From the NCBI RefSeq assembly GCF_045037415.1, contig NZ_CP173438.1: a stretch of 64,000 nt of DNA, one strand, 5' to 3'. This DNA is from Escherichia coli (GTDB lineage: Bacteria; Pseudomonadota; Gammaproteobacteria; Enterobacterales; Enterobacteriaceae). The position numbers were made by a program. This document shows, in pieces, positions 1 through 48,000 of the stretch. Position 1 is the stretch's first letter, and the number at the start of each line of letters is the position of its first letter.

Positions 1-3000
1 ATAGCGTACCACCTGAGATAAGGTACGGATCCTGAATGCGTACTGACCGGAAACCATACCAGGCAACAAATTTCTGTTCGCCAGTAAGTTATCCTGCCGG
101 TGCTGCATATTCTCCTCGTGGGGTATCCAGTGTAAATTAACGTAAGCGGAATGTCAGTGCTGAAATTTACACCAGATAAAAAACATACAGAAACAATCCT
201 GTTATGTAAAATCCGGGGAAAATATCAGAAATGTGATCGGAGTTGTATTTTTCGGAGGGGAAATGGAAAACAAACATCCGTATGGTAAAAAGGATGCTTC
301 CTGCGGAGTAACAATCCGGGACACAACGCAAGTTCCAGTTCAGGTGTTGTGAATTTGAGTAAAAATAATCGTAACTCTCCGGAGAACCGGAGCTTTCCCG
401 AAGCGGCGTATTCTTATAAATGGAAATCCCTGCAGGTAATCACTCTGCCCGATAGCAGCATAATTTGCCTGTTAATCCTCATCCCCGGAGGCAAGCTCTG
501 AAAACCACTCAGGGTGTTCACTGTATGCCACATTCAGCGCATCCCAGGAGACGTCCGCATAAAAACTGTCCCGCAATTTGCGGGTAACCACCTCTGCCAG
601 TCGGTTCCGGTTATCCGCCTGTCCGGCATAACCTCTCTCTGCCAGCCACTCATTCAGTTCATGTCCCAGAGACAGATTGATAAAATCGTAATCGGACCTT
701 GCCATTCCCGTTTCCTTTGCACATTTTTTTCAGACACGGGAATAAAGTATAAAAAGCGGCACTCTGCCCCTGTCAAGGTGAAATCTGCCCTTCATCGCAA
801 TGTCAGAGATGGTATGCCGGTATTTTGCGGGTTGTTCCCGTCAGGTTATCGCTCGCTTCCACGGACGTTGTCACCACCGGCATTCCGCTCTTTCTCAGTC
901 TCAGGATATCAGCCGCAATGCGCTGACTACCAGACCAGAACAGCCCGTCCAGTGCAGTCACCAGTAAACCGGCTTCCAGCGCATACTTCAGCCGTTCACG
1001 GGGCACTTTCACTTCCCGGGCAATCTGCTGATATGGCGATGATGTATTTTCATTCCCAACCATCCGGCGAATACGATGAGACAGATGATACCGGAATGTA
1101 TCCGGTACACCAGAAAGACTGGCCTTCAGGCTGTACACGCAGCCAAACCGTTTATCGTTGAACACCACATTTTTCTGGCTGAGGCCCCATTCTTCCCGAA
1201 GCGCGGCAATCAGTTGTGGTGTACGAGTAAGCAACAAGCGAAAAGGCAGTTCAAAACTGGTGACGTAATCCACATTCAGCAGGGCAATACGCAGCCGTTC
1301 TTCTGGTCCGGCCTCTGTCAGCCGACACTCCTCCAGAACATCCTGCCACTGCCGGCGAAGGCGTGGAGATTCATTCCGTTCGGTAAAAGAGTATTTATCC
1401 GCCAGATAGTCAATTCGTGTACGCATACTGAAGAGCATTCCGTATAAAGATTCAGCTGGCAAAACTTTATCAGTCCATAAAAATCAACGGAAGCGCAGAT
1501 GGTTCACACGTCCATTACCAACTGATTGTTGTCACAACCGGTAACACAAAGGACTGAACGACTGTTTTTAACAGCGGTGTTGCGTCATCCACCACCGTGA
1601 AACAACGCTGTGCAGGGAATCGTCCGCATCCCCATAACGGTCAAACATCGTGGCGTTGACAGAATGACCGACGAAAAGCCAGAAAGCGCTGATTCACTGA
1701 GCTGTAATCAATGTACAGCGCTGTACCGGACGATGGGTAATGGCGGTCACAACCGGTAACCCCAGAGACAATGCGACTGTTTTTAACGCAACATACTGAC
1801 CGGATGTATCACCCCGGGCAACCCGAAAACACCTTTCCACCCGGCATTGTCCGCCAGCACTTATCACCTGCCAGCTATGTTGCAGTAAATCCACCACTTG
1901 CGAACATTGTTCATCAACTGTGACACTGGCTCGCGGGTGACAAATACTCGTCTGGCTGAGCAGCAACAGGCATCGAATTGTTGCTCCTCCATGTTGTTCC
2001 CGCAACCAGCGTAATACCACCGACGATGATGGACTGGCAGTGTGATTGCTCTCAGTAATACGTTCATGCAGTTGTCGATAAAAGGAAGTGCAGAATGCAT
2101 GAATCTGTTGCCCGTAGATGTTTCCTTCTGTCGAATGGAGTATGAAGTGGACTGCCAGCAGACGCGGCCAGTGGTCAACAGCATGTTGAATAAAACGCCG
2201 GATGTCTCCCGGCTCTGAAATTAAGGCTTCGGTTATTTGCACGAAATGTTCCTTTTCAAACCCTGTTGAATTTTGTCAAACCGGTGCAGACACGCAGGAA
2301 AGCACGCCAGCACCGGTGTAATGCCAGTTATAATCAATAAGAATAGAATGACGAATCAGTCAGGAATAGCTATAACCTGCAGGCTGACTGGAGAATGTCT
2401 GCAAGAAGATGAACGTAAATGTCGCCAGCACCAGGGGCAGGGCCGGGTTCCACAATACCAGCGCTGGCATTTTGCACATTGCCAACGTACTGGCATCACA
2501 ACACGTTTCATGCTGCTGCTCCTCGTGATTCCTCAATTCGTTGTTGCATCCACTGCTCCACTTCACTTTTGTACCAGCGGCTGCTGCGCCCCAGTTTGAT
2601 GGGTTTAGGAAAATGCCCTTCACTGATCAGCCTGTAAAACCATTTATCGGTCATGCCGGTGAAACTGGTGATGTAGTTCATGTCGATCAGGGGATCGTCG
2701 GCACGCAGCCATACGCTGTCGTGGCTTGTTGTGGTCAACATGGTCAGAATGTCCTCAGTGAGATTTATGAAGAATGGGGTAATACGGGGAATGGGATGGC
2801 GTGCTGCTTTCAGCACTGCCAACCGGGATTGCCGGCAAGGCAACGGGCTTCCGGATCGCACACTCCACGGCGATCGCGGGCGAAATCACTGAACGCCCAG
2901 ATAAGGTCCTTAAACAGGGCTTCGCAGTCCGGTGACCGGCGATCCAGTACCACATCCCGGGTGATCTGCTTCTGGTACGGCTTTGCTTCACCTGGTGACG

Positions 3001-45000: not shown

Positions 45001-48000
45001 GTCGGTCCAGTTGCTGAAAAGGAACAGTGGCGGCACGATATGCTGATTCGTTTTCCTGAAGATACAGGTACTCTGCCCTGGATCCTGTTAAGAACACCTT
45101 ACAAAAACGGCACGGTCATTACCGCCACGGATTATTATTTTATTCAGGACATCATCTCTGTGGTTCATGCGGTTCCTGCAATACGATTCCGTTTGGGAAA
45201 CACGGTCCTGTCAGCCAGCGGAAAAAATGTCACTCTGCTCCCGGACGACAGCGGTATACAAAAAGAAAGTCATTCAAAAAAATATCCGTTCTCCCTGATT
45301 TATATCATCCCGGTGAAAATGCAACTTACCTACGCCTGGAAACAGGCCTGGTATATGATCCCTGTTGCCATCTTCGGTGGAATACTCACAGCCTTTCTGC
45401 TGTCCCGCCGACGTCCATCTTCCCCGCTCGATATGCTGAAAAATGCACTTGCTCACGGAGAGTTCAGACCTTATTTTCAGCCCATCATTTCCGCTAAAAA
45501 TCACCAGCTAACCGGCTGCGAAGTACTGATTCGCTGGCATCACCCCGTCAGCGGAATTATCCCACCAGATCAGTTTATCCCGCTGGCAGAGTCCACCGGA
45601 TTAATTGCCCCGATAACGCAACAGTTGATGTCTCAGGTCGAACATAGCCTTAATTCTGTTGCGCATTTTTTACCGAATCAATTTCATATTGGGATCAATA
45701 TTTCACCAGCGCATTTTCTGTCTCCGGGACTGGAGGATAGCTGTATGAAGTTTCTATCCACCTTCCCGAAAGGGAAAGTGAAACTGGTTCTGGAACTGAC
45801 AGAACGAAACCAGCTATCCGTCACCGCAGAATCAAAAGCGTTATTTGCGAAATTACATCAACAGGGAGTATTGTTTGCACTGGATGATTTTGGTACTGGC
45901 TATGCAACCCACAGCTACCTGCAGTCGTTTCCTGTCGATTACATCAAACTCGATAAAGGGTTTGTACAAATGGTCGGCGTGGATGAAATCTCCGGGCATA
46001 TAGTAGAAAATGTTATTGAGCTGGCTCGCCGGTTAGGTATTGATATCATTGCCGAAGTCATTGAAACCGAATCACAGGAATTGTTCATGACAGAGAAAGG
46101 AAGCTGCTATCTGCAGGGATACCGCTATGCACCTCCACTACCCGCTGAACAGTTTATTGCTGAGTGGGTATACAACAGCGGAAACGGCAAAAACCAGAGA
46201 TAACACATACTGAAATGGACCAGGATATGCGTCCCCCCCTTTCACCTCATCTCCCAACTCCCGGGTTTGATTCCTTTTTCACAGCAAAAGGGACTGAGGG
46301 TACAAAAGAGGGTACATTTTTAACCAAACCAAACAAAATTAACCAATCTCAACATGATAGAAGCAATCTTCGATTCCGAGTCCGGCACCAAATTCATATA
46401 AACGGACCTCCACGGAGGTCCATTTTTCGTTTCAGGACGCCACGATTTAAGCGTCCTGCCGCCAAATCAATTCTACCGAACTCAACCAGATTCTCCCCAC
46501 ATCACCAGCAATTTGCGGGCATATCCCAATTCGGGAAAATTTGTTTCTGAGCTATAGCGCTGACTGACGTGAAATGTCGTGCGGCCCCGTGATGCTGTTG
46601 AACGTCAAATGACGTCATCAGGAGCGTAATGCATCCATAAAGCACAACATCGGGCAGAACGCCAACTGATGAGATTTTCTGAATGAGAACAAAGAGAAAT
46701 GTATCAGTCCGTTTGCTCATGCAAAGACTAACAATCCATTAAAATAGTAAGCGCTCCGGACAATTTTTCATGGATTATTTTCTGAACATTTTTCTTTGGC
46801 AAAGATGATGAATTTTGATGGTAAGGAAAATTACTTCTGGTTCTCAGTAAAATCCTTTCGTAATACTATGTAATCAAGAAGTTTATGGCGAGTAAAAATA
46901 ACGTCTTGCATTCACCAATAATATGTAAATAAACCCATCTATAGATGGAAAAAATAGGTTATGGCAATTATCATTGCATCATTCCCTTTTCGAATGAGTT
47001 TCTATTATGCAACAACCTGTAGTTCGCGTTGGCGAATGGCTTGTTACTCCGTCCATAAACCAAATTAGCCGCAATGGGCGTCAACTTACCCTTGAGCCGA
47101 GATTAATCGATCTTCTGGTTTTCTTTGCTCAACACAGTGGCGAAGTACTTAGCAGAGATGAACTTATCGATAATGTCTGGAAGAGAAGTATTGTCACCAA
47201 TCACGTTGTGACGCAGAGTATCTCAGAACTACGTAAGTCATTAAAAGATAATGATGAAGATAGTCCTGTCTATATCGCTACTGTACCAAAGCGCGGCTAT
47301 AAATTAATGGTGCCGGTTATCTGGTACAGCGAAGAAGAGGGAGAGGAAATAATGCTATCTTCGCCTCCCCCTATACCAGAGGCGGTTCCTGCCACAGATT
47401 CTCCCTCCCACAGTCTTAACATTCAAAACACCACAACGCCACCTGAACAATCCCCAGTTAAAAGCAAACGATTCACTACCTTTTGGGTATGGTTTTTTTT
47501 CCTGTTGTCGTTAGGTATCTGTGTCGCACTGGTAGCGTTTTCAAGTCTTGAAACACGTCTTCCTATGAGTAAATCGCGCATTTTGCTCAATCCACGCGAT
47601 ATTGACATTAATATGGTTAATAAGAGTTGTAACAGCTGGAGTTCTCCGTATCAGCTCTCTTACGCGATAGGCGTGGGTGATTTGGTGGCGACATCACTTA
47701 ACACCTTCTCCACCTTTATGGTGCATGACAAAATCAACTACAACATTGATGAACCGAGCAGTTCCGGTAAAACATTATCTATTGCGTTTGTTAATCAGCG
47801 CCAATACCGTGCTCAACAATGCTTTATGTCGGTAAAATTGGTAGACAATGCAGATGGTTCAACCATGCTGGATAAACGTTATGTCATCACTAACGGTAAT
47901 CAGCTGGCGATTCAAAATGATTTGCTCCAGAGTTTATCAAAAGCGTTAAACCAACCGTGGCCACAACGAATGCAGGAGATGCTCCAGCAAATTTTGCCGC

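Follow-up and report, generated by a model that had tools for sequence, protein, structure and literature searches.

A CP4-type backbone with dsdCXA and choline-utilisation cargo at the pheU-cadC junction of an Escherichia coli chromosome

We analysed a 64,000-nucleotide stretch of Escherichia coli DNA (contig NZ_CP173438.1 of assembly GCF_045037415.1; hereafter the window), of which positions 1-46390 are very probably the distal part of a larger pathogenicity island (PAI) inserted at the tRNA-Phe gene pheU. A sequence-only reading had proposed one composite CP4-like island that ends in a tRNA-Phe 3' remnant and carries dsdCXA, a D-serine locus, together with a choline-utilisation (cut) microcompartment locus. 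Window segments 1-12000, 20000-36000 and 44000-50000 matched many O25b:H4/sequence type 131 (ST131) complete genomes at 99.9-100%, and judged by sequence identity the source chromosome is E. coli ST131. Over positions 1-62134, strain Ecol_AZ146 (hereafter AZ146) differs from the window by two single-nucleotide polymorphisms, two 1-bp indels and one 9-bp repeat unit. The GC content varies from 37% to 56% across the region, indicating a mosaic composition.

The pheU junction and the extent of the island

The right end of the island is marked by the attR core at positions 46369-46390 (+ strand), a copy of the 3' end of tRNA-Phe in which GGG is shortened to GG. This sequence, TTCGATTCCGAGTCCGGCACCA, corresponds to the final 23 nt of pheU except that its GGG run is one G short (22/23 nt). 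It is present once in the window, and 100 shuffles gave 0 matches. A search of the window with the 23-nt pheU 3' end and up to 3 mismatches returned no match because the copy differs by an indel; searches with the 22-mer and with a 17-mer settled the question. ARAGORN found no tRNA genes in the window. The remnant stands upstream of cadC in the place of pheU in K-12, as the sequence-only reading had it: cadC starts at 47007, 617 bp past the remnant, with the same spacing as that between pheU and cadC in MG1655 (pheU end 4362551, cadC start 4361934). From 46369 on, the window is 98.1% identical to the MG1655 pheU-yjdQ-cadC stretch, and left of this position the alignment to the tRNA showed no similarity.

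A junction query was compared with 5426 genomes, most of which matched only from window position 46369 on and had an intact tRNA-Phe there; this fixes the right boundary exactly and shows that there are empty sites. In thousands of genomes tRNA-Phe is directly joined to yjdQ-cadC. One such site is that of ZH193, which we take to be an ST131 strain and which matched the junction query from 46369 on at 99.9%. Positions 46391-47006 (+) are chromosomal backbone and comprise the pheU terminator and a yjdQ-type integrase relic (~46588-46747). On the other side of the remnant, a conserved island terminus of ~110 bp (46259-46368, +) was recognised from the many genomes that match from window position 46259/46260 on, and this terminus is probably the integrase-binding arm of attP. 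It precedes the att copy in three different pheU islands, the ST131 one (window 46259-46390), a minimal one (locus L019, ~12001-12131) and a LEE island (locus L020, ~12001-12132), and the tRNA-like att copy with GG rather than GGG is identical in all three.

The far end of the island was located in near-identical genomes. In AZ146, pheU, an integrase gene and dicD-dsbD-cutA-dcuA-aspA lie ~116 kb from the remnant, and strain 4/0 has an identical pheU-integrase junction ~128 kb from its remnant copy; both islands are flanked by dicD(yjdC)-pheU on one side and by cadC on the other. The pheU/cadC flanks and an integrase at the opposite end, both anticipated from the sequence, were thus found. According to the RefSeq annotation of AZ146, the integrase is a tyrosine integrase of 420 aa, encoded by an intact 1263-bp coding sequence 197 bp from an intact pheU. 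The 17-mer TTCGATTCCGAGTCCGG has sites in the AZ146 loci at pheU and attR only, so there is one att pair and no internal copy. The sequences 3' of the intact pheU (terminator, integrase leader) and 3' of the remnant (terminator, yjdQ-type relic) are homologous. The similarity between attL and attR amounts to ~92% identity over ~140 nt and extends more weakly to ~240 nt, which makes the flanking repeat much longer than 22 bp; imperfect repeats of ~135 bp have reportedly been seen for PAI II(J96).

Near the integrase end of the AZ146 island are genes for an outer membrane protein, a phosphoethanolamine transferase and a large AAA protein. The segment between the integrase and the window start holds hlyCABD, cnf1, IS66/ISEc16 insertion sequences (IS), F17-like fimbriae and a pap operon with papGII, so that the PAI II(J96)-like gene set (hlyCABD, cnf1, pap, F17-like fimbriae) is on one pheU island in AZ146, outside the window. 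Left of the window are cdiBAI and then traG, vasL and IS66 fragments, followed further on by a trio of cytosine methyltransferase, ATPase and receiver-domain genes and by a two-component system. The window therefore covers the distal ~40% of one 116-128 kb island, with ~70-80 kb more to the left. The claimed extent of 1-46390 holds for one island and for its right end, but coordinate 1 is only the window edge within cdiB; the earlier reading also missed that these 46 kb are the distal ~40% of an island with hly, cnf1 and pap that has already been described. The same distal part, ISEc10 insertion included, is present at pheU in the non-ST131 chromosome 09A19CPO004B.

As a separate observation, in locus L002 (5687-11379, left of the window) the trio consists of a DNA cytosine methyltransferase, a 986-aa ATP-binding protein and a receiver-domain protein between IS relics, and it may be a defence or restriction-type module.

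Backbone and IS-bounded cargo

At the window's left edge lies the 5' end of cdiB (1-108, -), which encodes a ShlB/FhaC-type transporter of the contact-dependent inhibition locus in the RefSeq annotation of the AZ146 locus. Three conserved hypothetical island genes follow in that annotation (472-705, 803-1426 and 1694-2242, all -); the product of 803-1462 matches phrog_24243, a family of unknown function. The left arm of the backbone begins with an alpA-like gene (2508-2741, -) for a small DNA-binding protein of the AlpA family (Pfam PF05930, Phage_AlpA, 1.6e-10), beside which the annotation places a backbone hypothetical gene (2810-3370, -). Next is a first Gp2/YagK-YfjJ-like gene of 188 aa (3617-4183, -), named 'inovirus-type Gp2 protein' by RefSeq, with a Pfam match to REP_ORF2-G2P (3.1e-5) and a weak one to YagK_YfjJ_C (6.6e-4). 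A second Gp2/YfjJ-like gene (243 aa, 30299-31030, -) belongs to the backbone and aligns to the Gp2 gene of the minimal island.

That minimal island (L019, isolate 323_BP0014), also at pheU, served to separate backbone from cargo. It consists of alpA (-), a hypothetical gene (-), Gp2 (-), a hypothetical gene (-), a block from the GTPase gene (+) to DUF4942 (+), the att copy and cadC. Its alpA-hypothetical arm (L019 1-925) corresponds to window 2688-3597 at 88.7% identity, its Gp2 arm corresponds to window 30190-32215, and its right arm is 81-96% identical to that of the window. The two left arms are adjacent in L019, and positions matching window 3597 and 30190 adjoin there, so 3598-30189 is cargo relative to the minimal backbone. 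This 26.6-kb insert between the alpA-hypothetical pair and the second Gp2 gene holds the first Gp2 gene, dsdCXA, the cut locus, malY-nhaC, IS relics and a restriction enzyme gene, and it bears out the earlier estimate of about 30 kb of cargo. The region of a gene for an EAL-domain protein (44564-46259) is a second, small insert relative to L019; the gene itself (44668-46203, +), identified by annotation and alignment, is extra terminal cargo.

The CP4-type right arm (34580-42029, +) was delimited by tblastn with K-12 CP4-57 proteins, NCBIfam and annotation. It runs from a GTPase gene (34580-35464) through a YfjR-like gene (35667-36347), a hypothetical gene (36495-37172) followed by DUF905, DUF932 (37501-38318, frameshifted by a 1-bp deletion at 37757), antirestriction (38410-38895), RadC/JAB (38910-39386), DUF987 (39455-39676), cbeA (39755-40132), cbtA (40179-40556) and DUF5983 (40553-41041) followed by DUF957, to the 5' part of DUF4942 (from 41335), which is split by ISEc10. 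In tblastn the CP4-57 proteins matched at 31% (YfjJ, 30326-31015, -), 39% (YfjP), 43% (YfjR), 72-77% (YfjQ/DUF932), 67% (YfjX antirestriction), 77% (YfjY, RadC-like), 64% (YpjJ), 68% (YfjZ) and 66% (YpjF), with E-values of 1e-23 to 1e-107; NCBIfam gave names only to RadC (1e-46) and generic GTPases among the backbone proteins. The CP4 hallmark genes are thus present in the order listed by the sequence-only reading, as tblastn and Pfam confirm, but their orientation on two strands is unlike that of CP4-57. The same strand layout in L019 shows that this split orientation is not a rearrangement peculiar to the ST131 island. CbeA/CbtA, antirestriction and RadC-like proteins are standard backbone functions of this island type and would be expected to have these roles in the ST131 island as well; the CbeA/CbtA pair presumably stabilises it.

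Between the second Gp2 gene and the GTPase gene lies a convergent pair of unnamed genes with 37-38% GC (32739-33527, +, and 33524-34477, -). Pfam, PADLOC and PHROGs gave no family match for the pair at 32739-34477, and its homologues are unnamed Escherichia/Enterobacteriaceae proteins. The AT-rich stretch at 31-34.5 kb had first suggested a hotspot of variable defence genes, comparable to the gap between yfjJ and yfjP in CP4-57. A 56%-identical homologue of the pair, however, occupies the same Gp2 ... GTPase slot of diverged islands (L012-L015, 6001-7799). This conserved position, together with the lack of any PADLOC, Pfam or PHROGs match, led us to reject variable cargo in favour of backbone genes. 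They may form a functional backbone module (maintenance, regulation or defence) of no described family. The AlphaFold model of the 317-aa protein had a mean pLDDT of 48.7, too poor for a fold search. Two further observations concern the pair: its products have ~262-291 aa, with a weak RepB/ribbon-helix-helix-like C-terminus, and ~316 aa; and strain UM146 and a Makkah O25b:H4 ST131 genome (locus L001, NZ_CP015085.1) have a different single gene in the slot.

The cargo is punctuated by IS3-family, IS2 and IS21 elements, as had been noticed from the sequence. A 3' fragment of an IS3-family transposase gene (9184-9611, +), which RefSeq annotates as an 'integrase core domain' pseudogene, was found by self-BLAST to form an inverted repeat of 84% identity with 23427-23857, the matching end of a full, annotated IS3-family element (23427-24739, -). 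The full element contains an ALIL frameshift pseudoknot (24285-24401, 117.6 bits), the only Rfam match in the window, and is 28% identical to InsF of IS3. Beyond it are genes for a malY/patB-like C-S lyase (25156-26334, +) and an nhaC antiporter (26327-27778, +) and a psiE fragment (27853-27986, -); by self-BLAST, this block (25156-27986) lies between the IS3-family end at 24634-24739 and, at 28202-28306, a 106-bp repeat of that end. An IS2 relic (28354-29036, +), internally deleted and truncated at both ends, matched nt 44-449 (91%) and nt 887-1170 (96%) of MG1655 IS2A in blastn. ORFs (open reading frames) and annotation place a frameshifted restriction endonuclease gene at 29092-29971 (-). 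ISEc10 (IS21 family, istA/istB; 42030-44438, -) lies within DUF4942, as seen from annotation and the L019 alignment, and is flanked by an 8-bp target duplication, CACTCAGT, at 42022-42029 and 44439-44446.

Relative to AZ146, the window has an extra T at 29766 and a missing T at 37757, which frameshift the restriction endonuclease and DUF932 genes, respectively; the two differences reflect either genuine decay or sequencing errors in homopolymers. The minus strand of window 9640-9662, between the IS3-family fragment and the cut locus, reads CTGTCTCTTATACACAAAT, a sequence that we take to be close to the IS50 outside end (two differences) and to differ from the Tn5 mosaic end. It occurs in other assemblies too and so probably represents the relic of an IS4-family end, not adaptor contamination.

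Beyond the island, window 56800-64000 is DNA of 30-43% GC that follows ghoST and a GNAT gene. It encodes a 1309-aa autotransporter (57072-61001, -), after which come an AraC-family gene and the start of an S6-family (SPATE) peptidase gene. Other backbones (L018, L019) have yjdI-dcuSR at this slot, and the segment is a second, separate insertion. AZ146 has an extra IS1 at window 62126-62134.

The second dsdCXA copy and the choline locus

The dsd genes of the island comprise dsdA (5294-6622, -), dsdX (6640-7977, -) and, divergent from these, dsdC (8195-9139, +), with intact ORFs of 442, 445 and 314-316 aa. The sequence-only reading had placed dsdCXA of K-12 next to emrYK, at a different locus, and had suggested that the island genes represent a translocation or a second copy. 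An ST131 genome indeed has native dsdCXA beside emrYK, and the matches of K-12 strains to the island copy are confined to the three genes. The island and emrY-linked loci are 97.8% identical, over 5301-9115 only, and the last ~8 dsdC codons differ from the native gene. All 30 of the 30 best-matching genomes, in which island dsdA was matched at 100%, have two dsdA places, AZ146, p11A, p4A and S65EC among them; across the collection, dsdA occurs at 5710 places in 5394 genomes. The island dsdCXA is a diverged second copy and not a translocation. That a single copy moved from the native site has its unusual location alone in its favour, and we give this almost no credence: the two dsdA places refute it for the near-identical genomes, ST131 retains the emrY-linked locus, and the island copy is 2.2% diverged from it.

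Two observations were made around the dsd loci. Just past 9115, where the similarity to native dsdC ends, the 9-bp unit GATACCGGG overlaps the dsdC stop codon (window 9137-9165) and is repeated twice in the window and three times in AZ146. The native ST131 dsdCXA (strain 5392, L007 9030-11684) adjoins another CP4-type module (YeeU-family antitoxin, DUF987, JAB, antirestriction, DUF932, Ag43) that is 91.6% identical to window 37372-40099; both dsd neighbourhoods therefore share long paralogous repeats.

The cut microcompartment locus (9793-23178, -) has intact ORFs. Reading leftward from 23178, the order is TetR, a winged helix-turn-helix protein, a FidL-like protein, the cmcABC shell genes, aldehyde dehydrogenase, an EutN-type pentamer, alcohol dehydrogenase, cutC (13341-16763), cutD (12342-13289), a bacterial microcompartment (BMC) shell gene, a PduL-type phosphotransacylase, a hypothetical gene and, at the 9793 end, two DMT transporter genes. 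By annotation the type II gene set is complete, with CutC, CutD, BMC-H and BMC-P shell proteins, aldehyde and alcohol dehydrogenases and phosphotransacylase. CutC aligned to the choline trimethylamine-lyase of PDB 9f3w over residues 13-1140, N-terminal extension included, with 2403 bits. The RefSeq identifiers of the cut proteins are the same as in UM146. Both cargo loci claimed from the sequence were thus recovered. The functions of the cut and dsd cargo are predicted from identity to studied loci, namely the microcompartment of E. coli 536 and the native dsd operon.

The cut block is bracketed by inverted IS3-family sequences, the 9184-9611 fragment and the matching end (23427-23857) of the full element. 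In the Makkah genome, the counterpart of window 9234-23798 has the opposite orientation to that of its flanks. Of dsdCXA (5346-9233) only ~50 bp of the dsdA 3' end remain, and each of the two junctions carries the IS3-family end 23427-23798. The pattern suggests that the arrangement of the window underwent an inversion mediated by IS3 together with a deletion, and the 13.8-kb cut locus may be a movable or invertible cassette rather than a fixed part of the island. The genes cmcA, cmcB and cmcC (window 19861-20722) are tandem paralogues with ~80% DNA identity; in recombineering of strain 536, the cmcABC repeats gave rise to deletions between paralogues (PMC10710832).

Origin of the island and comparison with known systems

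We consider it very likely that window 1-46390 represents the distal ~46 kb of one pheU pathogenicity island of 116-128 kb, GI-pheU/PAI II(J96)-like and of ST131 virotype E. A P4-type integrase beside pheU would have recombined an island-borne attP with the pheU 3' end. At attL this would have kept the tRNA intact; at attR it would have left the tRNA-like 22-mer that the island itself brought, immediately followed by the former pheU terminator and then by the yjdQ integrase relic and cadC. The 22-mer would then be an island-borne attP copy, not a chromosomal tRNA leftover. Strand exchange probably took place 3' of the G run, because the tRNA at attL has no defect and would otherwise have inherited it; the one-G-short attR shared among islands would place the crossover at or beyond the CCA end of the tRNA. 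Into a backbone of the CP4-57/CP4-44 kind, cargo would have accreted as IS-bounded blocks. One would be dsdCXA, captured from another E. coli lineage and predicted to serve D-serine uptake, deamination and regulation, and another the type II cut locus (13.8 kb), predicted to convert choline to trimethylamine and acetaldehyde and the latter to acetyl-CoA/acetyl-phosphate and ethanol. Further blocks would be malY-nhaC with its IS3-family brackets, the restriction endonuclease gene and the gene for the EAL-domain protein. Expression of this cargo, like mobility of the island at present, is a prediction from sequence.

Several points weigh against reading the region as a single active element. The integrase and the intact tRNA are not in the window, and the left end comes from near-identical genomes rather than the source genome; sequence data cannot show an excision product or a circular form. 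The frameshifts in DUF932 and the restriction enzyme gene suggest decay, and the AlpA-type gene is ~70 kb from the integrase. The stepwise identity to UM146 and the duplicated backbone genes show that historically there was no single clean acquisition, and they agree with the word 'composite' in the earlier reading. The same facts favour two histories, in which the right CP4-type module (~30.2-46.4 kb) was the older pheU resident and the PAI II-like hly, cnf1, pap, cdi, dsd and cut genes were added later by recombination or insertion, so that the present unit is a fusion that was not acquired whole. A small island (alpA-hypothetical-Gp2-hypothetical-GTPase...DUF4942-attR) indeed exists at pheU on an ST131-like backbone, there are two Gp2 genes and a GTPase fragment near papX, and the identity to UM146 declines from 99.8% (1-22680) through 98.5% (22680-32022) to 96.6% (34504-40104), with 40105-46368 not aligned. 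However, the complete arrangement with the same ISEc10 insertion occurs in another chromosomal background and so now travels or recombines as one block, the AZ146 loci have no internal pheU att copy, and the right arm of L019, only 81-96% identical, is hence not from a direct parent. We hold such a history to be possible but distinctly the less probable account; it concerns origin and is compatible with an island that behaves as one unit today.

Tandem independent islands were rejected as the present state, given that an internal att copy is lacking. An assembly chimera or a chance 22-bp match is extremely improbable: an IS-rich region can mislead assemblers, but the tested segments of the region, 6-16 kb long, were covered to at least 80% by 110-256 independent complete genomes, a non-ST131 backbone has the structure too, and the 22-mer, absent from all shuffles, sits exactly at the site of pheU in K-12. 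Overall, the single pheU island proposed from the sequence is supported in its interpretation and confirmed in its observations. The island is a mosaic by origin and is found today as a single block, in several chromosomal backgrounds and at two different tRNA sites, which fits work on PAI II(J96)-like domains (Bidet et al. 2005, as referenced in a passage of PMC9519008).

In an ST131 subclade that is expanding, the island brings toxins and adhesins (hly, cnf1, pap) together with two predicted metabolic traits for host niches: the tolerance and use of D-serine, relevant to urine, and the anaerobic fermentation of choline to trimethylamine, relevant to the gut. The insertion site, the components and the island itself are already known from the literature, and the present addition is limited to the distal anatomy: it fixes the att boundaries exactly, delimits a 26.6-kb cargo insert by comparison with a minimal relative, resolves the cargo into IS-bounded blocks and proves that dsdCXA is a diverged second copy. 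It is rather unlikely, though conceivable, that this distal part holds small unstudied mechanisms, such as an invertible cut cassette, a convergent-pair module or a crossover 3' of the G run.

The island of the window is the same as GI-pheU of ST131 S65EC/virotype E, with which it shares the pheU site and ISEc10. S65EC matched window 1-12000 at 99.9%, 44000-50000 at 100% and dsdA at 100%, with two dsdA places. GI-pheU is described in the pertinent passage of PMC8386418 as an island of 122,601 bp with cnf1/hlyCABD and ISEc10, and this published size of 122.6 kb compares with 116-128 kb in the near-identical genomes. The corresponding passage of PMC9519008 calls the cnf1 islands of ST131 H30Rx/C2 syntenic with PAI II(J96), or 'PAI II(J96)-like'. 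In these passages the published accounts centre on cnf1/hlyCABD and the flanking IS, not on the distal dsdCXA-cut-CP4 part.

UM146 has a collinear island of ~120 kb beside nanM/nanC/fimB, reported as PAI-UM146-leuX (121 kb, leuX site; PMC7545054); the same source, a review, lists CdiA and DsdA for this PAI. The two islands are alike in a collinear series of integrase, pap, F17-like fimbriae, cnf1, hly, cdiBAI, alpA, Gp2, dsdCXA, cut, malY-nhaC and CP4 right arm, and many proteins are identical. The UM146 island differs in its leuX site, a different integrase protein, a more diverged right arm, the lack of DUF4942::ISEc10 and of the EAL end, and a dsdC annotated as truncated. A second, island-borne dsdCXA copy beside the emrY-linked one is likewise known from the argW-dsdCXA island and from K1 strains, and a passage of PMC7545054 states that K1 strains commonly have two copies, attributing this to Moritz and Welch 2006. 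The island content of UM146 suggests that the second K1 copy may be the same locus as that of the ST131 island.

Compared by gene set, from descriptions, the type II cut locus of E. coli 536 (PMC10710832, PMC4453576) shares with that of ST131 cmcABC, aldehyde dehydrogenase, cmcD, alcohol dehydrogenase, cutD, cmcE, the PduL-type enzyme, a cutC with a long N-terminal extension and a location within a pathogenicity island, which in 536 is a known one (PMC4453576). Both E. coli 536 and E. coli MS 69-1 have been shown to produce trimethylamine from choline anaerobically (PMC10710832, PMC4453576). The ST131 locus differs from the 536 locus in its inverted IS3-family brackets and in being inverted in one ST131 genome. 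With CP4-57 and CP4-44 of K-12 the island has in common the AlpA, YfjJ, YfjP, YfjQ, YfjR, YfjX, YfjY, YpjJ and YfjZ/YpjF families and a P4-type integrase at a tRNA or tmRNA gene. CP4-57 has all these genes on one strand, whereas in the ST131 island the minus strand encodes alpA and the two Gp2 genes and the plus strand the block from GTPase to CbtA; relative to CP4-57/CP4-44 its protein identities are only 31-77%, and it is five times larger and carries virulence and metabolic cargo.

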